From positions 1,888,001 to 1,952,000 of the forward strand of contig CM000151.3 of NCBI GenBank assembly GCA_000004695.1: a stretch of DNA of 64,000 nucleotides, in the 5' to 3' direction. The notes under the pieces are model-generated. The model saw only the letters and a program-made list of their open reading frames with translations, searched no databases and had not been told where the DNA came from. Shown piece by piece: positions 1,671 through 63,836 of this stretch; within the stretch, counting starts at the first letter, position 1, and the number at the start of each line of letters is the position of its first letter. This DNA comes from Dictyostelium discoideum (Eukaryota). Made by a program: the position numbers and the translations under genes.

Positions 1671-2563
1671 TTATTTTCTAGATTTCTTTGAGGAACCTTT
1701 TGGAGGTGAAGATAAGTTTGGTTTTGGTGAAGTTGGTGAGGTGGCTGATTGAGTTGAAGAGCTTGATGAATAACTAGATGATAAATTATCTTCGAGATTT
1801 TTTTCTTTTGGTGATTTCTTGGCTATTGGGATTGGAATTGAAGCAGATGGAGAGGTAGTTGTAGTGGTGGTGGTGGTAGTAGTTGGAGTAACTGGAGGTG
1901 GTGGTAAAGAATCACCATCATTGTTAATAATTGGTGGATTACTATTTGAAGATGATTTTAAAGTTGGTAATGAGCTACTACTAGTATTTGGTAAAACTGG
2001 AATTGGAGCTGGTGTAGAAGAAATTGGTCTAGGATTATTACTTCCTAAACCGTTATTATTATTGTTGTGGTTGTTACTACTAACTAAAGGAATTGGGATT
2101 CCATTTGTTGATGAAATTGGGAATTTATTATTATTATTATTATTATCATTATTACCTAAATGTGGATAAGCTGGAAAATCATCCTCATCACCTAAACCTG
2201 TGAATTTATCAATACCACCATCATCATCTTCTTCATCTTCATCATCAAAATGTTTTAAACCACTTTCCCTAGTGACCATTGGGTTTGGAATTAAATCTTT
2301 TTCTAAATTCTTATTACTATTTTTAAAAAATTGTTGTTGTTGTTGTTGATGAGGTGGTTGTTGGTGATTTGGTGAACCAAAATCTTCTATACCTTTTTTC
2401 ATTAAAAATCCTCCTGTTTCTGGGCTATTATTAAAATTGTTATTATTGAATCCATTATTGGTATTAAAATTTTTATTATTATTATTATTATTACTATTAA
2501 AACCGTTACCGTTATTTATAGTTATAGGTTGACCAACTCTATTACCAAAACTACCACTATTAC

Positions 2564-2602
<39 letters not shown>

Positions 2603-5522
2603 AACTATTATTATTGCTACTATTGTTGTTGCTACCAAAACTATTGCCACTATTATTATTATTAATTGGGATTGGAATAGTTGATTTTGAAATTGGAGTT
2701 TTCATTGCATCATTTAATTTTTCAATAATTTCAATATCATCTTCATCTTTGATATTTACAAAGTAAGAACCTGGATTATCAAAAGAGGAACCAGATTTAT
2801 ATTCACCATCCATACCAATACCATTAGAGGGAGAGGTACTAAAACCACCACTACCATAACCATCTTGAATTCTTGGGGAGATATTTTTTCTTTTTTCAAA
2901 TTTAATAACCTCACCTACTGGGTAATCTTGATCGAAAAAGTTAATTTCACTACCACCCTCCATAGAGTTTGAAGAGACAGCGGGTGAAACTGAATTTGAA
3001 GATCTAAATGTAAATTGAGGTACACCCCAGATTGCACGAATCTCTTGACTATGTGTTGTAATTTCAACATTATATAACCATCTTGCTTCTTGATCTTTTG
3101 ACATGTGATGTTGGAGTTGTTGTTTATTAATCTCTGTTAAACTATATGGAATGAATTGACTTTTGTATTCTGGTGATCTAGTTTTTCTACAAACATCCCA
3201 TTCAGCCACTGGTGTGATTGAAAGGCAAAGAGTATTTTCGGCCATTTCTGATGAGATTGGTGGACGTAGTGGTCTAAGTTCATAGAGAATCAATTGACCA
3301 GTTGGAGAGCAAACGAATAAATTCTCTAAATTTGGTTGATTAGATTCAATGAAACAAGCATTACCACCAGACATTAAACAACCTTGTACAACACTACCCA
3401 AGGTTGAAGAGGATGCTTCATCATTATCATTTCCTAATTTAATTCTATCCATTGCATTAATGGTTAGCAATGATGGAGTTAGGTTATTAACCGATGAATA
3501 ATAATCAATTGGTCTCTTACTATTTGGACTACGAGTTATATGAGAATGAATATCAACTTCACCACCTAATGGATTAATTGCAAATATATGTGTTGTACCT
3601 CTAGATGTTGTTAATGCTACCCATTTACTATTTTCACTTGTTGTAATACCTTGAATCGATGCATTTGTAATACCACGTTTTAAAATATAAATATGTCTAT
3701 ATGATTGTTCAAAATTCATTGAACTATTATTATTATTATTATTATTACTACTAATGATTATACCATTACTGTTATTACCACCATTATTATTTATTATATT
3801 ATTATTTGTATTATTATTTGTGTTATTATTACTATTACCGCTAACTATAATACTATTATTATTTGTTGTATTATTGCTATTATTTGTATTATTATTTGTA
3901 TTATTATTATTATTATTATTACTATTTAAACTTAAACTATTATTAATTATAATACCACTATTATTACTATTATTTATATTATTGTTATTATTGTTATTAT
4001 TACTATTTACACTTGTTGATAATGGAGATGATATAGTTAAAGAATTTGTAAATGGTATAATTTGATAAGTGTTTACTTTTGTACCTTCGGTTGTACTTGT
4101 AAACAAAAGTGTACCAGTTGGATCAAAAGCCAAATAAGAGATTGGATGAGTATGAGGTGGTTTAATGAGTGAAACTATTCTTTGTTTCACAAAATCAAAA
4201 ACAACAATAACACTTGCTGCATCTGGTTTATCGTTCATTCCACCACTACCACCACCACCCAATTGGGGTGCATTACCCATTGCCAACGATGATGTAGAGT
4301 TTGGACTTGTACCTAAAATTGATTGCTCATGATTTTCTGGATATAAATAACTTGATACTTTTTTTCTACCAATATCACCAAAATAATATAATTTCTGTGC
4401 TACCTCTTTTGCAATATCACTGGCAACATCGACTGCTGTATCACTAAAGGTTTGATTTTGTGGTACTGATGGATTACGATTTTGACTATATCCAATACCA
4501 CCACCACCACCGCCACTACTACCACTACCATTACTACTACCACCACCAAAGTAATGACTTGAGTGATGATGACCACCAATGAATGAATAGGATGATTCAT
4601 AATCTGTATATGCAATCCAACGAGATCCCAATGCAATTACACCCAATGATGTTACACTTGGATAACAAGGTAATGATAATCCTTTGATTTTACTCATATC
4701 ATTGGCATTAAATCCTACAATTCTCTCTTTTAACACCACCAATATAATTTGTTGATTCGATAATACATTATAAATTGGTGACTTAAATTTGTACATACTA
4801 ATTAATTCTGTTGTTTGTAATGAAAATATTCTAACCATATTTTTTGTAACTTTTGGATTATCTTCACCTGAACTAAAAAAAATTAAATAATAAAAATAAA
4901 AAAAATAAAAAAAAAAGATTAGTATTTTTTTAATATATATATATATATATATATAAAACAAAAATTAACACATACACAACAGCTAATAATGGTCTTTTAC
5001 CATAAAATGATGATGATTCATTATCAGGTTCTAAAGGATTTGTTAAAACCTTACAAAATTTTGTAAGTCCATCTCTACATGATAACAATTCCTTAACTCC
5101 ATCTGTATGATTTAAATCCCAAACTTGAAAACCATTATTATAACAATTTATTAAAATTTTATGTCTTAAAAATGAATAATTTTTTTTTTTTTTTTTTTTT
5201 TGTATTTAATAAAAGAAATAAAATAAAATAATTAATATCCTCCTTTTTTTTAAAAAAAAATATATATATAATTTTATATTTACTTTTCACCTTGAATAAA
5301 ACATTCATCAAAATAAGTACCAACTATAGTATCTTTTTCTTCAAATGTTACAGGTGAATTCATAATTTGTTTCTTTATTGATGATTTAATACTACTTGGA
5401 ATGTAGGATGAAATACCTTTAATATAACCTGTAATTACGGATTGATTAAGATAATTGGTTTTCTCCTCTGCTTTCATTCCTCCATAACCTGAATTTGTAT
5501 GATTTAATGCATTTTGGTACAT
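1671..5522 (-). CDS. BCAS3 (breast carcinoma amplified sequence 3) orthologue, WD40/BCAS3-domain autophagy-associated protein, about 1209 aa. Exons: complement join(5284..5522, 4976..5164, 1671..4872)
   Basis: Exon 1 ends caa ggt gaa aa|GTAAAT. Exon 2 translates HKILINCYNNGFQVWDLNHTDGVKELLSCRDGLTKFCKVLTNPLEPDNESSSFYGKRPLLAVV. Exon 3 carries KSPIYNVLSNQQIILVVLKERIVGFNAN...IALGSRWIAYTDYE, PISYLAFDPTGTLLFTSTTEG, WVALTTSRGTTHIFAINPLGG, LFVCSPTGQLILYELRPL and VEITTHSQEIRAIWGVPQFTF. These align block by block with human BCAS3 ([80 protein letters not shown]). Exon lengths are phase-consistent (239, 189, 3202 nt). Long Asn/Thr/Ser/Gly low-complexity inserts are present. Confidence 0.85.
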
Positions 5523-23543: not shown

Positions 23544-24632
23544 TTAATAAAGATTTGGATCTAAAATAGTTTCATATGGAACAAATAATGAATCAATACC
23601 ATTAGTTTCAATAAATGGAGAATCTTTGTGAATGTATCTTGGTGTCATTAGTGCCCAATCACGATTACCACAAATAATTTCATGTAATTGTTCAACTAAG
23701 TAAATAACACCATTCATTTCTTCTTCACTTATATGGCTAAGTGATTTGATTAACAATTTTTCATCATTTTGGATATCAAAAATGCATTGTTTTGCTTCTG
23801 CTATTAATTCAGAATAAACTTTTTCAAATGGTAAATTCAATTTCTTTTGGAGGATGTAAAGACAATTTTCACCAGCACAATCATGATTTAGTTCCTTTGC
23901 ATATGAAACACAATCATTAAAAATAATGATTTGTCTTGATGCTGATCTCACCATTCTATTCCAAATTGGATTTAACCAAAATGATCCATGGACATTAGTT
24001 CTAACAGCAACACTATTAACACCCACGACAAAGAATAATCCAATATTAATGGTTCTAATAAATTGATATACTTCAATTGGAACTGAATCATGATTATTTC
24101 CTTTTGATTTTTTCAATGGAATAATTGAAAAGAACCATTCTCTTAAATAATGAATAAAGATATTGAATGATTCAATTCTATGAATTGTTGGATTTAATAA
24201 TCTTTTTCTTAATATTAAAGAGTATTTATCTAATGGAGTCAAGTCATTATATTCAATATTTGAAATATATGAACTATCTTTACCAAAGATTAATATATCT
24301 TCATACTTTTTAACACAATACTGTTGTTTTTCATCAGTCATATGGTCACGTTCAAGAAAGTCATCCAAAACGAATATCCACAACATAATACTGGCGGCAA
24401 CCATACATTGTTCATAATCATACTTTGGATAGAACCATGTTACACAATTTAGAACTCCATTGGCATAAGCAAAATGTTTTTCATTTGAAGCTTCAAATAT
24501 ACCACAACTGACTCCTTCATTATAGGTATCTTTGATATGTTTATAATTTTTATTTATTGGATAAGACCATTCACTTGGGAAATAAAATTTTTTTAAGCTA
24601 TATAACGGTTTTTCAAGATTAATAGTTTCCAT
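23544..24632 (-). CDS. Class I terpene synthase (microbial-type TPS), 362 aa, single exon
   Basis: All three signature motifs are present: the aspartate-rich VLDDFLE (DDxxD/E), the NSE/DTE triad NDCVSYAKE (NDxxSxxxE), and the C-terminal WxxxxxRY motif (WALMTPRYI). The size is typical of dictyostelid TPS genes. Confidence 0.9.
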   Translation of the reverse strand: METINLEKPLYSLKKFYFPSEWSYPINKNYKHIKDTYNEGVSCGIFEASNEKHFAYANGVLNCVTWFYPKYDYEQCMVAASIMLWIFVLDDFLERDHMTDEKQQYCVKKYEDILIFGKDSSYISNIEYNDLTPLDKYSLILRKRLLNPTIHRIESFNIFIHYLREWFFSIIPLKKSKGNNHDSVPIEVYQFIRTINIGLFFVVGVNSVAVRTNVHGSFWLNPIWNRMVRSASRQIIIFNDCVSYAKELNHDCAGENCLYILQKKLNLPFEKVYSELIAEAKQCIFDIQNDEKLLIKSLSHISEEEMNGVIYLVEQLHEIICGNRDWALMTPRYIHKDSPFIETNGIDSLFVPYETILDPNLY

Positions 24633-25136: not shown

Positions 25137-25832
25137 AAAATATTAGTAAATTATTTTCTAATAATTAATTTTGATTTGAATTCTAATGGGCATAATGTTT
25201 TTGTTAAATAACCATTTTCATCATTTAATTGGGTGGTGGTTCTTTCAAATTTAAATGTTTTATATAATTTAGTTGATACCAAAAACATTATTGAATCAGC
25301 GACATTGGCACCAGGACATTGACGTAAACCAGATGAAAAAGCGCATTGACCAATATTTGATTCATCTTTTGATAAAAAGCGATCAGGATTGAAGATGTTA
25401 GGTTCACTGCTTTCAATATTACTTCTATTACATCCATATAAATTTGGAATTACTTGAGTATTTTTTGGAATAAATATATCATCAATAACAATATCATCAG
25501 TACATATATGTGGTAATGCAAATGGTGCTGCTATATATATATATATTGATTTTTTGAAAATATTTTCAGTAATTATTTCAATAAATATATTATGTATAAT
25601 AAATTATAATAATGTATAATAAATATTTACGTGGTGAAATTCTTAAAGTTTCTTTAATAAATGAATTTAAATATGGGAATTGTAATTTATCCTTATGTAA
25701 TGGATGGTTTGGTGTGTTTATTTCAAAAAATAATTTCTCTTGAATATTTGGATAATTTGTTAAATATAATAACAACCAATCCATAGTTGTACTTGTTGTA
25801 ACTTTAAAAAAAAAATTAGAATAGTCAATTTT

Positions 25833-25879
<47 letters not shown>

Positions 25880-26379
25880 AAAATATAATATTATATTTAC
25901 CTGTAACAATAATATTAAAACTTAAATATGAAGATCAGTTATTTTAATTAAATTTGATGTATCCTTTCGAATTTCACTAATGAAATATTCTAAAAAACAT
26001 TTTGGTTCACTAATATTTAATAAAAAAAAATAAAATAAAATTTAGTTTTTTATTTAAATATATACTAAATGTTAAATATATATACATACATTCCATCATC
26101 ATCATCATCAATAATATTTTTTAAAATATTATCAATTAATGGTTGAAAGAAATTTAAACAATTATTATACTCTTTTTCAATTTCTTTATAATTATTAAAT
26201 GGTTTTAAAATTGGGATAAAATCTGCTGGTTGTTTTGCTAAATATTCAAATAATTTATTATAGCTTTGGATAAATGAATAAAATTATTTTGATAATAAAT
26301 TATCATCATATTCAAATGATACACCAAATAGAAATCTATATAAAATATTTAATAAAATTCTTTTAAAAATTGGACCCAT

Positions 26380-26429
<50 letters not shown>

Positions 26430-27927: not shown

Positions 27928-28619
27928 AAAATATTAGTAAATTATTTTCTAATAATTAATTTTGATTTGAATTCAAATGGGGATAATGATCTTGTAAAAT
28001 GACCATTTTCATCATTTAATTGAGTAGTGGTTCTCTCAAATTTAAATGTTTTATATAATTTAGTTGATACCAAAAACATTATTGAATCAGCGACATTGGC
28101 ACCAGGACATTGACGTGAACCAAATGAAAAAGCGCATTGACCAATATTTAATTCATCTTTTGATAAAAAGTGATCAGGATTGAAGACGTTAGATTCACTG
28201 CTTTCAATATTACTTCTATTACATCCATATATGTTTGGAATTACTTGAGTATTTTTTGGAATAAATATATCATCAATAACAATATCATCAGTACATATAT
28301 GTGGTAATGCAAATGGTGCTGCTATATATATATGGATTTTTTAAAAAAATAAAAATTTTCAGTAATTATTTCAAAATGTATAATAAATTATAATAATGTA
28401 TTATAAATATTTACGTGGTGAAATTCTTAAAGTTTCTTTAATAATTGAATTTAAATATGGGAATTGTAATTTATCCTTATGTAATGGATGGTTTGGTGTG
28501 TTTATTTCAAAAAATAATTTCTCTTGAATATTCGGATAATTTGTTAAATATAATAACATCCAATCCATAGTTGTACTTGTTGTAACTTTAAAAAAAAATT
28601 AGAATCATAAATTTTAATT

Positions 28620-28651
<32 letters not shown>

Positions 28652-30011
28652 AAAAAAGAAAAAATAAATATTAGATTTACCTATACCTGCAACAATAATA
28701 TCGAAACATATATATGGAAGATCAGTTATTTTAATTAAATTTGATGTATCCTTTCGAATTTCACTAATGAAATATTCTAAAAAACATTTTGGTTCACTAT
28801 TATTTAATAAAAAAAAAAAAAAAAATAAAATTTAGTATTTTAATTAAACACATACTAGAATTATAACTTATACATACTTTCCATCATCATCATCATCACT
28901 AATATTTTTTAAAATATTATCAATTAATGGTTGAAAGAAATTTAAACAATTATTATACTCTTTTTCAATTTCTTTATAATTATTAAATGGTTTTAAAATT
29001 GGGATAAAATCTGCTGGTTGTTTTGCTAAATATTCAAATAATTTATTATAGCTTTGGATAAATGAATAAAATTCTTTTGATAATAAATTATCATCATATT
29101 CAAATGATACACCAAATAGAAATCTATATAAAATATTTAATAAAATTCTTTTAAAAATTGGACCCATATCCTTTTTTTTTTTTTTTTTGTGAAAAATTAA
29201 ACTAATAATCAATTATATATATATATATTTATTTATTTATTTATTTATTTTTTTCAAAAATAATAAAAACTTACAATATTATTATCTTGATTTATTTTTT
29301 TTAATAAATATTCTTCAGCTTTAAAATATTCATTATAAAATAATTCTTCCATTTGACGAGATTTTGATTTAGTAATTGAACTACTTAAAATATCTTTTAA
29401 TTTTCTCCAATGAGAACCATTACCAAATCTAATTTATATATATTTAATTAATTAATAATTTTTTTTAATACTAAATATTTATTTTTAAAGTTATATACTT
29501 ACATAATACCTTGATATTTTCCCATGTAATAAAAAGATGGTAAATGAAATCTTTGTGAAAAAAAGGTTGGATTGTCACGAAATGATTTTTGTAAAAAATT
29601 GATATCATTAATTACAATTGTATCAATTGAACCCATTTTCAATGAAAATACTTTTCCGTATTTATCTGATAATTGTTTGAATGATAAGTGAGGATATTTT
29701 AAACTTAATTTGTAAAGGCTACCAATAATAGGTAATATTAATGGACCACTTGGAAATTTACATTTTAATTTATTTTCTCCAACTAATAATGATGAAGGTA
29801 CTGCTCTATTAAAAAACTTTTTAAATTAAAAATTTTATTAATATTATTTTTTATTTAAAAATTTTATTAATATTATATTATATTATATTAATGCTTACTT
29901 TTATATTTATTAAATATATATATATAAATAATCCTAAAATAATTCCTAATATCATTTTTTAATATTAATTAAATTAAGTTTTAAAAATTTAATTATTAAA
30001 ATTTTATTAGT

Positions 30012-30064
<53 letters not shown>

Positions 30065-30163
30065 AAACCTTCAGTATTGTAAATAAAATCATTATTATAT
30101 TTTGACTAATTGGTTTTACCTATTTTAAAAGATGATTAAATCAAAATAAAATACACACTTTCC

Positions 30164-30215
<52 letters not shown>

Positions 30216-30703: not shown

Positions 30704-30795
30704 CAACTAACACTGTAAAATTAAAAATTGAATTCAATAGGTTTTTTTTTTTTTTTTTTTTTTCCCAATCCTACCCAAAAAATAAAATACACAAA

Positions 30796-31311
30796 ATGGC
30801 TGACCCAGAAAATAATAATAACTATAATGTTGATAGTGGATCTAATATCAATGATAAGCACCAAGATCCAATTGAACAAAAAGATAGTTTCAGTAAAATT
30901 TTAAAAGAAAAAAGTATTTTAATTGGAGATAAAACAGTTGAATTTGCAAAGGAACATCCATACACAACAACAGCAATTGCAATCACTGGGGTAACAACAG
31001 GTGGAGCAATTATTGCAACACCTTATATCGCAGCAGCTTTAGGTTTTGGTACTGGGGGTATCATTAAATCTACAATTGCAGCTAAAACAATGGCAACTTT
31101 AGGATCAGGTTCAAAAATCGGTGCTCTGTTACAATCAATTGGTGCTAAATCAACAATTCTTCATTTAGTTGGTGCTACTAAAATCGCTGCTATATCTGGT
31201 AGTATTTCTGCTGCTTGTGTATCTACAATTTATTATGCAAAAGATTGTTTTTCTAAAATATTAAACTATTTTAATAATAATAAAAATAATAATAAAAAAA
31301 AAGAAGAATAA
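30796..31311 (+). CDS. Interferon-alpha-inducible 6-16 family (IFI6/IFI27/ISG12-like) small Gly/Ala-rich membrane protein, 171 aa
   Basis: ITGVTTGGAIIATPYIAAALGFGTGGIIKSTIAAKTMATLGSGSKIGALLQSIGAKS parallels human IFI27 ...AMGFTAAGIASSSIAAKMMSAA...GGGVASGSLVATLQSLGA. A Kozak-like A-rich context is present. Confidence 0.65.
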   Translation: MADPENNNNYNVDSGSNINDKHQDPIEQKDSFSKILKEKSILIGDKTVEFAKEHPYTTTAIAITGVTTGGAIIATPYIAAALGFGTGGIIKSTIAAKTMATLGSGSKIGALLQSIGAKSTILHLVGATKIAAISGSISAACVSTIYYAKDCFSKILNYFNNNKNNNKKKEE

Positions 31312-31476
31312 TACCAATAATTAAACAAATGAAATGAAGAAATAGTTAAAAAGGTAACAAATTTTCACACAAGGATATCCTTTTATTAAAATCAATAAAT
31401 AAAAAAAAAAACATTAGGTTTTCTAATTAAAATTAATATATTTGTTTTACTATTGTATAGCAAATAAATTTAATAT

Positions 31477-31716
31477 TTATTTTTTAATTATAAAATCTAA
31501 AGTTTCTTTGAGTAATCTATTTCTTCTTAATGATTCATATTCATCGGGTGCAAAGTCAAAGAAATGTCTTGTTTCCTTTCCAATCTCTGTTGATACAAAT
31601 TTAAAAGTTACATCAATACGGTTTTCATTTACTGGAGCACCAACATTTGGAATATCAATATACAAATGTCCAAAAAATTGGACACCTGGGTCAGTCGAAT
31701 ATGACATTGTTGGCAT
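31477..31716 (-). pseudogene. Partial duplicate of the 3' end of the Hsp70-like domain of the upstream gene (MPTMSYSTDPGVQFFGHLYIDIPNVGAPVNENRIDVTFKFVSTEIGKETRHFFDFAPDEYESLRRNRLLKETLDFIIKK*). No vWA follows
   Basis: About 85% nucleotide identity to 32600-32840. It keeps the reading frame that the main copy has lost and lacks the 27-nt insertion present in the main copy. Confidence 0.5.
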
Positions 31717-31956
31717 GTGATGAGAAAATGGAAAATAAAATTAATTTTTGATCTCGTTTAGTTGGAAATATGGTCTTGTAAACACTTCATCAAAACCAAC
31801 CATTTGGTTTGCATGAACAATAACATCACAAACATTTTTGCAACTAGTGATTATAAATTCATACTTCAACAAAAAAAAAAATAAATAAAAAAAAAATTAA
31901 AAAAATAATTTGATATTCAATTTTATTTCATTTTTAAAGGGATATTTATTAATTTT

Positions 31957-34422
31957 TTAATTTGTAAATCTGGTAATAGAGGTTTGAACAAAGTTAACTA
32001 AAGAAGGTAATAATTTTGAGACATCTGATCCAAGGTCATGAACTACAATCTTTTTTTGAGGTGAGTCATATGACTTTCTAAAAATTTCAATCATCTTATC
32101 AGTTTGAGATGTGATTTTAATGAAATAATAGTCAATTGATTTTGAAGATAATTTTTGTAAAAGTTTTTCTGGAACCAAACCACTTGGGTCACCATCTGGA
32201 TATGAATCAACACAATTATGATATTTTTTGCCGTGGCATGGTGCATCGCCTACATGGACAACAAGTTTAGTATGAGTTGGTTTCCACGATAGGTTATTTA
32301 CTTGTAAAAAAGCACCTGTAATATCTTCTGGAGTATCACCACCACCTGTTGGAACTGCTTCATTAATTTTGGAAGCAAGATATCCCATATCCGTTGTAAA
32401 TGGTACAACCTCAAATCTATTGGAATCAGTAATATCACGATAACCTATGAAACTTGCATTCAATTCCAAACCTACATATGAGCTGGCTAATAATCCAGTT
32501 AATGAAATAATTTTTTCTTTACTTTCTTTAATCCATGAGCCCATACTACCAGTGCAATCCATCATGAGGCAAAGTTGTACCATTGGGGGTTTATTCTTTT
32601 CTTGACGTAATCTATTTCTTCTTAATGATTCTGCTTCATCGAGTGCAAAGTCGTAAGAATGTCTAATTTCCTTTCCCGATTTTACATGTAATGCACAAAC
32701 TTCTATCTCTGTTGATGCAATTTTAAAGTTACATCAATACGGTTTTCATTGACTGGTGCACCTACATTTGGAATATTAACATACAATTCACCAATAAATT
32801 GAACACCTGGGTCAGTCGTATATGACATTGTTTGCATATACGATGAGAAAATGGAAATTTCAATGGCTTTTTGATCTTGTGAAGTTGGAACATATGACCT
32901 TGTAAACACTTCATCACAACCAACCATTTGATTTGCATGAACAAAAACATCACAAACATTTTGGCAATGTGGAATATCTCTGATTTTAATTATTGATTTT
33001 CCAGTATGTGGTTTACTTGGTGTAACTACTTCTGTAATCTCTGTTGCATAACTTTTGGTTTGTTTTCTTGTTGAAATTGTATTTGGATTTAATCCAAATC
33101 TTGTTGCACCCATAACGACTGATAGACCAGCCTTATTTGGAATGATGAATTTTGCACCAGTAAATTCTAATTCACTTTTAATATGTTCTTGCAAATCTTT
33201 ATTTTCATTGAAACCGCCAATTAAAAAAATATAATCTAATTTTTTAATATCTGAATTTGATTTGATTTCACTTTTTATTGAATCGGTGATACTTTGGAAT
33301 AAAGGTTTGAAAAATGAAATAAATAAATCCTGTGGGAAAATCAATTTCTCTCTTGCTGATGAATATCTTAAACTGAAACCACTTTTTGAATTAAATTCTT
33401 GAATTTTTTTATTTAACCATTTTTCATCTTCATGAAATAATGCCATTGGAAAAAATTCTAAACTGATGATATGATTTGAATCTCTATTATAAGTTTTTTT
33501 TAAGAATCCAAATTTATCAAACAAAGATTGTAAGTGGGGCTTTTTTTTCTTTTTTCAATAACATCATCTCCAAATAACTTTTTAAGAAATAAAATAAAAT
33601 TATTATTAACATAACTTGATCCAAAATCACCACCAAATGAACGAGAAATTGATTTTAATTTTCCTCCTTCCAATTGTTCATAACAAATGATATCGGATGT
33701 TCCACCACCATTATCGATAACCATAAACTTTTAACCAACTTGAACAGAGTAACCAGTAGTTTTTTCAAAAATACATTGTAATGCACCAGCTTCTGGTTCA
33801 TATGAAAAGATGAGAGACTCTAAGAATATTTTAAATAAATTGTTAATAAATGAAAATTTGATTTTATTTAATAAATTAATTTTTACTTACCTTTATCATC
33901 TTTTGAACAAAGTCCTGCAGTGTCTGCACAACTTCTCATTACTTGTTTACTAGAGTCATCCCAAATTGCAGGGATTGTTAATACCCATTGAACTTCGGAT
34001 TCATAAACTTTTTTGGAAGATATACTATTTACCTTATTCATTGCAACAATTTTTAAATATCTTAAGGATTCAGTAATGAGTTCTTGAATTGTTGCACTAT
34101 GATTACCACAAACTGATTTAATTGGTTGGCCTCTAGTTTTTGGGTTAAATAGATGCATTTTATAAGAGGAGTAAAGCGAATGTTTTTCAGTACCTTCATC
34201 ATCATTGTTTGAAAAGTAATCTCTAGCCTCGTAACCAAATGCAACAAATTTTTTTTTTTCATCCAACACAATTTGCGTCAAAGTTTTTACATTTATTGAA
34301 CATGACCCACCCCAAGTTTCAGTGCAATAAACTGTCTCTGAAATATCTTGGGGGAAAACAAATGCAAACCCAGAACATGAAGTACCAAAATCAATTGCAA
34401 TTACAACACTTTTACCTTTCAT
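31957..34422 (-). pseudogene. HSPA12-like (Hsp70 actin-fold ATPase) gene fused to a C-terminal von Willebrand factor A (MIDAS) domain. One in-frame TAA and two single-nt homopolymer frameshifts make it a probable pseudogene. Exon 1 is 33891..34422, the intron is 33820..33890, exon 2 starts at 33819
   Basis: Exon 1 has VVIAIDFGTSCSGFAFVF, the Hsp70 phosphate-1 motif. Exon 2 has MVIDNGGGTSDI (phosphate-2), FGDDVIEKRKK, YIFLIGGFNENKDL, TRSYVPTSQDQ, TDPGVQFIGELYVNIPN, collinear with human HSPA12A. Lesion 1 is an in-frame TAA (plus-strand tta at 33731-33733) in ...YSVQVG*KFMVID. Lesion 2 is a frame change inside the A8/A6 run at about 33541-33556. Lesion 3 is a 1-nt loss in the tttt/aaa run at about 32719-32728, judged against the fragment at 31477..31716. 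If these are mentally corrected, the frame runs without stops into ORF 31957..32583 (MVQLCLMMDCTGSMGSW...), a vWA domain with the DxTxS MIDAS motif. Confidence 0.5.
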
Positions 34423-37751: not shown

Positions 37752-51413
<13,662 letters not shown>

Positions 51414-54696: not shown

Positions 54697-55386
54697 ATGA
54701 AAAAAATTAAAATTAAAATAGAAAATGAAGATGAAAATAAAAATAAAAATGAAAATGAAAATAAAAATGAAAATGAAAATAAAAATGATAAAGAAAAAAA
54801 AATAAAAGTTTCAAAAAAAGAAATAAATAATGAAGATGTTAATCTAAAAAATGAGATTGAAATTGGCAATAAGAATAATATTACTAATGAAGATTTAATT
54901 AATTTAAAAAAAATATATGAATCAAAAATATCAATATTAAAAGAAACACATAAAAAACAAATTGGTATGTTAATTGAATTAAATTCAAAAACAATGGAAA
55001 ACATTGAAATTGGACATCAAAATCAATTGAATAAACTTGAATCCAGCCATTCAAAGTCATTTTTAGCGTTAAAAGAAAACTATTATACAATGGTTAAAAA
55101 TACAAAGATTTTACTTGAAGAAATTGATTTACTAAATATAGATTTAAAACAATCAAATCAAGATATCAATAAAGTCATTTTAAAGAATAATATCTTAAAA
55201 AATCAAATTCTAAATTTAGATAAACATATTAAAGAAATAAATAATTCAAAATCATTTTTAGAAACAATTATTTTTGAATCAAAAAATGATAATAATAAAT
55301 TAAAAGAACAAGTTGCAAATTTATTATCTTTAGCGAATAATAATATTAATAATAATAATTATAATTATAATAATAATAATAATAAT

Positions 55387-55473
<87 letters not shown>

Positions 55474-56250
55474 TATAATAATAATAATAGTAATAATAAT
55501 AGTAATAATAATAATAAAAATAGTATAAATAATAATAAAAATAATAATAGTATCCATGAAGATATTAATAATTTAAGTTTTTTAAATAATACTTTAATTA
55601 ATGGATTAAATAATATAAATAATAATTTACAAAGATTAGAATCATCAAGAGAATGGGATATCGAATCTGAAAAAGAGAAACTAGAACTTGAAAAAGCTAG
55701 AATTAGGTTAGAATTAGTAAAACTTTTAAAAAAAGGAGATGAAAAAAAATATTCTGAAAAAGAGAAGGACAAACTAATAAAAACTGAAAAAAAATCGAGA
55801 AATAATAGCGCCACCACCACCACTTATGAAGAACAACAACATCAATTACAACAAATCTTAGAAAAAGATAATAAGAAAACTATAGAATTAAAACAACAAC
55901 AACAAGATGATCTTGATGTTTCATCAGCATCTGGATATATTGATAATAAAATAGAAAAGAAAACAAGAAAATCAAATCAAAAGAAGGAAGAAAAAGAAGT
56001 AGAAGAAGAAGAGAAAAAATATGACGGAGAAAAATCAAGATCAAAGAATAAAACAACAGAAAAATTAAAAAAGAGTGGATCAACTGAATGTATTATTATA
56101 GAGGATGAAAATGATGGTGATAAAAAAGAAAAAGTTTCAAATAAAAAAAGAACAATAACTTCAAGAGGGAGTAATAAAAAATCCCAAATCGATGATGATG
56201 ACCTAAATGAAAAACCAATGAAAAAAACAAGAAATTCAAAAAAAAAATGA
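54697..56250 (+). CDS. Hypothetical coiled-coil protein, 517 aa, with an internal poly-Asn tract of more than 60 residues and a K/E-rich C-terminus
   Basis: Intact ORF. Heptad-like helical segments (ILKETHKKQIGMLIELNSKTMENIEIGHQNQLNKLE...). The antisense ORFs 55330..55557 and 55473..55823 are low-complexity artefacts. Confidence 0.5.

Positions 56251-61613: not shown

Positions 61614-63836
<2,223 letters not shown>

Follow-up and report, generated by a model that had tools for sequence, protein, structure and literature searches.

A window of 64,000 nt from Dictyostelium discoideum AX4 (GenBank assembly GCA_000004695.1, contig CM000151.3, positions 1,888,001 to 1,952,000; window coordinates below count from its first nucleotide) was found to hold a two-exon gene on the minus strand (34422..31957, 2,466 nt). 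Once three lesions are repaired, its translation joins an Hsp70 module of the HSPA12 type to a C-terminal von Willebrand factor A (vWA) domain with a predicted metal ion-dependent adhesion site (MIDAS). The window is poor in G+C (~22%) and contains long A/T runs as well as short introns rich in A+T. Its list of open reading frames (ORFs) had been made with the bacterial code, so that eukaryotic gene structure had to be kept in mind throughout. Exon 1 starts with the ATG at 34422, opening MKGKSVVIAIDFGTSCSG, and ends at 33891 in a canonical donor (AAG/GTAAGT), while exon 2 covers the remainder of the ATPase domain (to ~33078) and, after it, the all-beta domain (~33077-32656), the linker helix and the vWA domain. 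The domain limits on the window were taken from the structure model of an orthologue, P0001. The features of the locus are as follows.

34422-33891, minus strand: exon 1, codons 1-177 and the first base of codon 178; intact, with the phosphate-1 motif AIDFGTSCSG (from the ORF and its translation)
33890-33820, minus strand: the single intron, 71 nt, GT..AG, AT-rich and of Dictyostelium type, ending in TTCTTAG before the AG that opens exon 2
33819-31957, minus strand: exon 2, codons 178-798 and the stop codon (31959-31957); carries the three lesions (from three-frame translation and alignment with the orthologous loci L001 and L003)
33733-33731, minus strand: nonsense lesion, codon 206 GAA (Glu) to TAA, upstream of the phosphate-2 motif DNGGGTSD
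33548-33536, minus strand: frameshift 1, a 1-nt deletion in the A8/C4 homopolymer tract GAAAAAAAAGCCCCAC, at about codon 270
32720-32719, minus strand: frameshift 2, a 1-nt deletion (TTT to TT) at about codon 548, TTAAAATTGCA, in the beta domain just upstream of the vWA domain
32583-31957, minus strand: predicted vWA domain, codons 591-798; a 208-codon frame that is still open, from an ATG, MVQLCLMMDCTGSMG...
31870-31477 (start approximate), minus strand: decayed 3' relic of a tandem paralogue lacking the vWA domain, corresponding to 32967-32598 of the main gene plus a private tail, KETLDFIIKK and a stop

Lesions and annotation of the gene

By comparing the gene base by base with its intact counterpart at L001, in another assembly labelled D. 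discoideum, we found only two indels over 2,501 positions, each of 1 nt and both missing from the window, in addition to the TAA that replaces GAA. A second intact orthologue (L003, encoding P0041) confirmed the same two indels and the same TAA/GAA change. An earlier note, made from the letters of the window, had described an in-frame TAA at 33731-33733 and two homopolymer frameshifts of 1 nt, and all three are indeed present, the frameshifts being the sole indels relative to the intact orthologues. At the nonsense site the window and a further assembly, L002 (GCA_054883475.1), read GGT TAA AAG, as against GGT GAA AAG in L001 and L003. The orthologous peptides at frameshift 1 are RKNSPHF and RKKSPHF, and an ancestral reading of ...RKKSPH... 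favors the loss of one C there (C5 to C4). At frameshift 2 the window and L002 have AAAA-TTGCA, and L001 and L003 have AAAATTTGCA. Introns were considered as the source of the three lesion sites and rejected, as no splice signals occur there and the orthologues have plain sense sequence.

The same note had offered homopolymer errors in the assembly as an alternative, and this was not borne out. L002 is 100% identical to the window over the 2,466-nt gene, with the three lesions included, whereas over the 14.5-kb locus the two differ by 15 substitutions and 11 indels, every one of the indels lying in long homopolymers. Because an independent assembly reproduces the lesions yet differs in the flanks, assembly error is effectively excluded and the lesions are very probably real. 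The change of GAA to TAA at codon 206 would stop translation, and the two 1-nt deletions would further shift the frame. Since the TAA precedes the phosphate-2 motif, neither an ATPase nor the fusion, and hence no full-length protein, is predicted to be made in AX4.

The AX4 annotation splits the locus in two. DDB_G0272700 (XP_644881.1, P0042) is a 206-aa stub that terminates at the TAA, and DDB_G0272917 (XP_644880.1, P0004) is a model of 487 aa in which frameshift 2 is bypassed by an invented 28-nt intron that removes the conserved VTLKIASTE. The lesions are likewise bypassed by invented introns in the 722-aa model of L002 (P0040). These two pieces of the locus were the only AX4 proteins recovered among annotated proteins by the homology search. 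In the literature, no paper was found to mention either DDB_G0272700 or DDB_G0272917, and searches combining HSPA12, von Willebrand and Dictyostelium, or aimed at the new Dictyostelium assemblies, returned nothing relevant.

Orthologues, recurrent loss and the downstream relic

The protein of L001 (P0001) is an intact protein of 798 aa, 93% identical over the full repaired translation. Its gene has an identical exon/intron structure, with the 71-nt intron at L001 10533-10603. As L001 has the same neighbors as the window and ~93-94% DNA identity to it across a neighboring giant gene, it was taken to be the positional orthologue in a diverged lineage. The neighbors common to L001, L002, L003, L004 and L086 are the giant gene of ~4,100-4,500 aa, a gene of ~360-420 aa, an Ifi-6-16-like gene and cytochrome P450 genes, and an intact gene occupies the syntenic position in L001, L003 and L005. 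The locus had previously been described as a decaying paralogue; the decay is evident from the three lesions, but the gene is the positional orthologue of intact 798-aa genes with the same flanking genes, not a redundant paralogue.

Intact full-length proteins were found in several dictyostelids, namely P0001 and P0041 (both 798 aa), P0002 of D. dimigraforme (795 aa), P0005 of Polysphondylium violaceum (806 aa) and P0008, P0009 and P0048 of Cavenderia fasciculata. Such orthologues, e.g. KAM9971669.1 (ACTFIW_011652) and C. fasciculata DFA_11474, DFA_11448, DFA_11453 and DFA_11435, have the same three-domain architecture, with lengths of 795-822 aa and identities ranging from 93% (P0001) to 44% (Cavenderia), and those within the D. 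discoideum group also share the intron and the synteny of the window gene. They differ from the window copy in that their frames are open, where the latter carries three disabling lesions. Annotated as [quoted passage not shown], the four C. fasciculata genes are found together on a single contig, which gives this species at least four paralogues, as opposed to the two pieces of a single locus recovered from AX4.

Syntenic loci were compared by TBLASTN with P0001 as the query, and D. dimigraforme (L005) gave two clean exons. The D. citrinum copy (L086) combines two or more frameshifts with an in-frame stop and the loss of ~145 codons, and the D. cf. discoideum copy (L004) has at least two frameshifts, one stop and no vWA domain; neither has any lesion in common with AX4. 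Independent losses of the gene in the D. discoideum group thus number at least three. It is still intact in the lineages ACTFIW and ACTFIR, in D. dimigraforme, in P. violaceum and in C. fasciculata.

The timing of the AX4 loss was approached through substitution rates. Between the window and L001, the ratio of non-synonymous to synonymous substitution rates (dN/dS; Nei-Gojobori) is 0.23, with a dS of 0.128. It amounts to 0.18 before the TAA and 0.25 after it, which we read as no rise. When changes were polarized with D. dimigraforme as the outgroup, the AX4 branch had 23 synonymous and 16 non-synonymous changes, compared to 24 and 33 in the intact lineages (Fisher p = 0.15). Since non-synonymous changes are not in excess on the AX4 branch, the inactivation appears to be recent, with the gene probably under purifying selection for most of that branch; the test dates the loss but cannot alone prove loss of function.

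Downstream of the gene, window 31843-31503 matches main-gene positions 32967-32598 with 79.8% identity over 371 nt (blastn, E 1.6e-97). The relic has its own stop at 31477, and its tail is not found in the main gene, which at this point enters the vWA domain. It has neither a start codon nor an ATPase domain, and one frame is kept in the last 79 codons only, the 5' part having suffered 1-nt, 2-nt and 27-nt deletions. L001 and L003 each have a homologous relic as well, placed downstream of the intact gene and reaching somewhat further 5'. When the sequences are aligned together, all three relics fall into a clade of their own, with diagnostic substitutions and the tail in common, and the AX4 relic is 91% identical to the L001 and L003 relics as compared to 84-87% to any main copy. 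The internal deletions differ between them, i.e. 27 nt in AX4 and 72 plus 10 nt in L001 and L003. Because the relic groups with those of L001 and L003 and shares their tail, rather than grouping with the AX4 main copy, it is the remnant of an older tandem paralogue without a vWA domain, one already present before the lineages of the D. discoideum group separated. That it arose by recent duplication of the main gene was considered and rejected on the same grouping. The 3' duplicate at 31477-31716 that had been proposed is accordingly a real copy, and a larger one (to ~31870), but not a fresh duplication of the junction region. In D. cf. discoideum (L004, P0006) there is a single gene at this position, which ends 3' as the relics do, in the same tail, and lacks the vWA domain; this gene may be that tandem paralogue in full, or a recombinant of the two copies. 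A second, Hsp70-only paralogue (P0011) is found nearby in D. dimigraforme.

In the lineage ACTFIW, ~4.3 kb (L001 12566-16858) are inserted between the Hsp70-vWA gene and the relic, and this insert is absent from the window. It holds a called gene of 159 aa and a low-complexity repeat (L001 14143-14331) that also matches window 55344-55575 and 62260-62648.

The remainder of the window adds a few observations on the neighborhood. The Ifi-6-16-like (interferon-inducible-6-16-like) gene (ORF 30796-31311, plus strand) lies in a segment of ~550 bp, 30770-31314, that accounts for nine of the 15 substitutions separating the window from L002. Five are inside the ORF and four of these change an amino acid (D3E, H22Q, T57A and G109V). 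The substitutions in this segment are mostly G to T or C to A, and the cluster is either a local diversity hot-spot or a set of clustered errors in one assembly. The giant gene is an uninterrupted ORF of 4,143 codons (38982-51413, plus strand) without any Pfam match at E<=0.001, and every Dictyostelium assembly examined has an orthologue of it (4,253-4,541 aa) upstream of the Hsp70-vWA locus. A tandem pair of cytochrome P450 genes on the minus strand (~25147-26400 and 27938-30210) cross-match each other at ~88-93%, and P450 copy number and spacing vary between Dictyostelium assemblies. ORFs at 23544-24632, 1671-4961 and 61614-63836, all on the minus strand, include a terpene synthase (PF19086, 46.8 bits), a BCAS3-like WD40 protein and a homeodomain protein. 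A scan of the window for tRNA genes found none.

The encoded protein and its relatives

The earlier note had recognized an Hsp70-like ATPase collinear with HSPA12A that continues, in the corrected frame, into a vWA domain with a DxTxS MIDAS, and both halves of this description agree with what was found. The Hsp70 family PF00012 scores 26.2 bits for the repaired AX4 translation and 29.5 bits for P0001 (cut-off 20.6). The window encodes the ATPase motifs DFGTS (phosphate-1), EPEAG (connect-1), DNGGGTSD (phosphate-2) and IGGF (adenosine). Among 30 homologues, D11, G13, E185-P186-E187, G215, D220 and G379 are invariant, and D213, G216, G217, T218 and G380 nearly so (90% or more). An AlphaFold model of P0001, built from the 30-sequence alignment, has a mean predicted local distance difference test score (pLDDT) of 87 and a predicted template modeling score (pTM) of 0.75. 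It consists of an actin-fold ATPase (1-425), an all-beta domain (426-566), a linker helix and an alpha/beta domain (591-790). With Foldseek against the PDB, its top matches are full-length DnaK, BiP and Hsc70 (E ~1e-25, ~600-680 columns), which argues for an ATPase followed by a beta domain of the substrate-binding type. The chain begins directly with the phosphate-1 strand, the ATPase motif starting at residue 8; with no room for a visible signal peptide, we infer that the intact protein is cytosolic.

The best named relatives of the Hsp70 module are atypical Hsp70 proteins of the HSPA12A/HSPA12B type, which occur in animals, with large expansions in bivalves, and match residues ~1-570. HSPA12A and HSPA12A-like proteins of fish and molluscs cover 54-71% of the query at 27-32% identity (E down to 1e-82). 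These proteins share the phosphate-1, connect-1 (EPE), phosphate-2 and adenosine motifs and the core of ~570 aa made up of ATPase and beta domain. They differ in that the animal proteins end after this core, or have other N-terminal extensions, where the family seen in the window adds a C-terminal vWA/MIDAS domain. As judged from these matches, the module belongs to the HSPA12-like branch.

For the vWA domain, a sequence search against the PDB gave no significant match (best E 0.66), and fold comparison was therefore needed. The AlphaFold model of the window ORF (pLDDT 88, pTM 0.87) found only integrin beta I-domains among its top 50 Foldseek matches in the PDB, with E values of 2e-10 to 1.5e-8 and template modeling (TM) scores of 0.65-0.74. 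MIDAS-type residues are present in DCTGS (D-x-T-x-S, at the end of beta-1), in GGGD and in the Asp of VHVGDAP (D113, after beta-4). In 11 vWA sequences D9, S13 and D113 are invariant (D599, S603 and D703 in P0001 numbering). The middle ligand is uncertain, as T84 is not conserved and the Asp of GGxD is the consensus residue. The modeled C-terminal domain thus appears to have a vWA fold with a predicted MIDAS metal site. It resembles the I-like domains of integrin beta subunits in its fold, in the D-x-T-x-S that ends beta-1 and in the Asp after beta-4, while being unlike integrin beta I-domains in that it is predicted to be intracellular, is a single domain and is fused to an ATPase, with a very low sequence similarity of 16-18%.

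A HMMER search of 1.84 billion representatives yielded 10,407 relatives at E <= 0.001, of which the best 150 were listed. Most of these 150 are HSPA12-type cores of ~570-600 aa (residues 1-570), or such cores behind other N-terminal regions. About eight of the 150 are collinear over the whole protein, the named ones being from dictyostelids (Cavenderia and Synstelium) and from Pelomyxa. The full-length Hsp70-vWA fusion is uncharacterized, and on this distribution it appears to be rare, centered on amoebae and conserved from Dictyostelia to Pelomyxa. Other pairings were also encountered. Willaertia P0025 (786 aa) is an Hsp70-like protein with a different vWA subtype (PF00092/PF13519), Naegleria P0030 (782 aa) is Hsp70-like and of similar length with no vWA family at E<=0.01, and in the metagenomic P0032 (816 aa) the order is reversed, with the vWA domain N-terminal to Hsp70. 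As far as their sequences go, these three proteins hint at independent fusions.

A relation to prokaryotic conflict systems with linked NTPase and vWA modules had also been suggested. Kaur et al. 2020 (PMC7159879) described pairs of MoxR (AAA+) and vWA proteins, acting as chaperone and co-chaperone, in prokaryotic "ternary" conflict systems, and mentioned HSP70 only beside GTPase-centered systems, not fused to vWA. Conceptually, these systems are like the Hsp70-vWA gene in that an NTP-driven engine of chaperone type is paired with a vWA domain that binds peptides. The engine here is, however, an actin-fold Hsp70, and there is neither an AAA+ domain nor any effector domain. In a scan of 185,579 prokaryotic genomes, 80 loci were kept and all flanking ORFs were searched with a family-specific hidden Markov model of the vWA domain. 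The relatives, mainly from filamentous cyanobacteria, actinomycetes and Thiotrichales, match residues ~1-570 only, and a vWA ORF lies within 5 kb in one of the 80 loci (in Longispora; Pfam VWA_4, 43 bits). Conserved linkage of the NTPase to vWA and effector genes, as would be expected of MoxR-vWA systems, is not seen in these loci. The suggested link therefore found no support, and the analogy appears to be a conceptual one only, with the defining features of such systems absent here.

The most common conserved neighbor in the bacterial loci is an ORF of ~500 aa with coiled coils and no Pfam family, which follows the HSPA12-like gene in 23 of the 80 loci, e.g. L064 6846-8705. Otherwise, clustering of the neighbors gave mostly antisense shadow ORFs of high-GC genomes. 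A bacterial locus often holds several HSPA12-like paralogues (177 ORFs in the 80 loci, L006-L085), and occasional neighbors are a double-AAA+ ATPase (L022), a WD40 protein (L014) and a radical-SAM-type protein (L082).

Explanations for the locus and their meaning

Taken together, we consider the locus to be a recently inactivated unitary pseudogene in the D. discoideum AX4 lineage, with a probability of about 0.9. The ancestral gene would have had two exons and encoded a cytosolic protein of 798 aa, made up of an HSPA12-like ATPase, an Hsp70-type beta-sandwich, a linker helix and an integrin-beta-I-like vWA/MIDAS domain. In such a protein, metal-dependent capture of an acidic residue on a partner protein may be the task of the vWA/MIDAS domain, and the ATP cycle of the Hsp70-like module could then hold, remodel or release the captured partner, so that chaperone and adaptor would be combined in one chain.

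Several points weigh against this account or parts of it. The AX4 branch carries no signal of relaxed constraint, which fits a very recent inactivation and equally a gene that is somehow still used, and fragments of the locus may have residual expression. L002 may be a close relative of AX4 re-sequenced, or AX4 itself, in which case the lesions would be real without fixation in the species thereby being established. The VWA_4 family (PF25106) scores 19.3 bits for AX4, below its cut-off of 27; P0001 reaches 20.2 bits and Pelomyxa P0012 26.8 bits, and Cavenderia P0008 passes with 33 bits. Lastly, the biochemical mechanism given for the intact protein is drawn from domain folds only.

Among other explanations, the least improbable is that the locus consists of functional split genes, with the 206-aa product of DDB_G0272700, the vWA-bearing product of DDB_G0272917, or both, being expressed and used independently. 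This would suit the uninterrupted vWA ORF, 208 codons long from an ATG, the missing signal of relaxed constraint, and the occurrence elsewhere of stand-alone proteins of this vWA type with 41-47% identity (P0113, P0133, P0151 and P0177). We nevertheless regard it as very unlikely. The 206-aa stub is without the phosphate-2 and adenosine motifs and cannot be an ATPase, the 487-aa model requires its invented 28-nt intron, which deletes VTLKIASTE, where the genuine intron has 71 nt, and all orthologues read straight through. Moreover, the vWA ATG is preceded by ancestral coding sequence rather than by promoter-like, AT-rich intergenic DNA, and an absent dN/dS signal is to be expected if the lesions are young.

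It is still harder to believe that the AX4 gene is really intact and that the reference is in error at all three sites, even though short homopolymers are the site of two of the lesions and an extremely AT-rich genome is harder to sequence. L002 reproduces the three lesions exactly while differing elsewhere by its 15 substitutions and 11 long homopolymers. One of the lesions, furthermore, is a G to T substitution and not an error in homopolymer length, and the runs at the other two are short (A8/C4 and T2), unlike the long runs in which the window and L002 disagree. Programmed recoding, in which readthrough of the stop and two programmed frameshifts would yield the full-length protein, is scarcely credible: both frameshift sites are slippery-looking homopolymers, but three separate events would be required in one gene, and intact orthologues at 95% nucleotide identity need none of them, having ordinary sense sequence at all three sites; nor would a conserved stimulatory element be expected.

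As to the role of the gene where it is intact, a more speculative idea is that the HSPA12-like-vWA fusion is an amoebozoan factor of cell-autonomous defense or conflict, with an intact/dead polymorphism across the D. discoideum species complex. It was prompted by the cluster of at least four paralogues in Cavenderia, by the three or more independent losses (AX4-type, D. citrinum and D. cf. discoideum) combined with purifying selection where the gene is intact, by the adjoining Ifi-6-16-like gene with five of the 15 substitutions between the window and L002, and by the bacterial relatives of the Hsp70 core, which are mainly from multicellular cyanobacteria and actinomycetes. Nothing tested demonstrates this, and we consider it rather unlikely.

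There is little unusual about such a dead gene, and its general interest is modest. Under the preferred reading of a recently inactivated unitary pseudogene, DDB_G0272700 and DDB_G0272917 would be one dead gene, and both models would be artefacts for knock-outs, proteomics databases and orthology tables. AX4 would also be a natural null for the fusion, so that re-introducing an intact orthologue from a sister lineage could serve as a clean gain-of-function test. For the family, the locus would document the recurrent loss, within the D. discoideum group, of a fusion that appears to be conserved from Dictyostelia to Pelomyxa.

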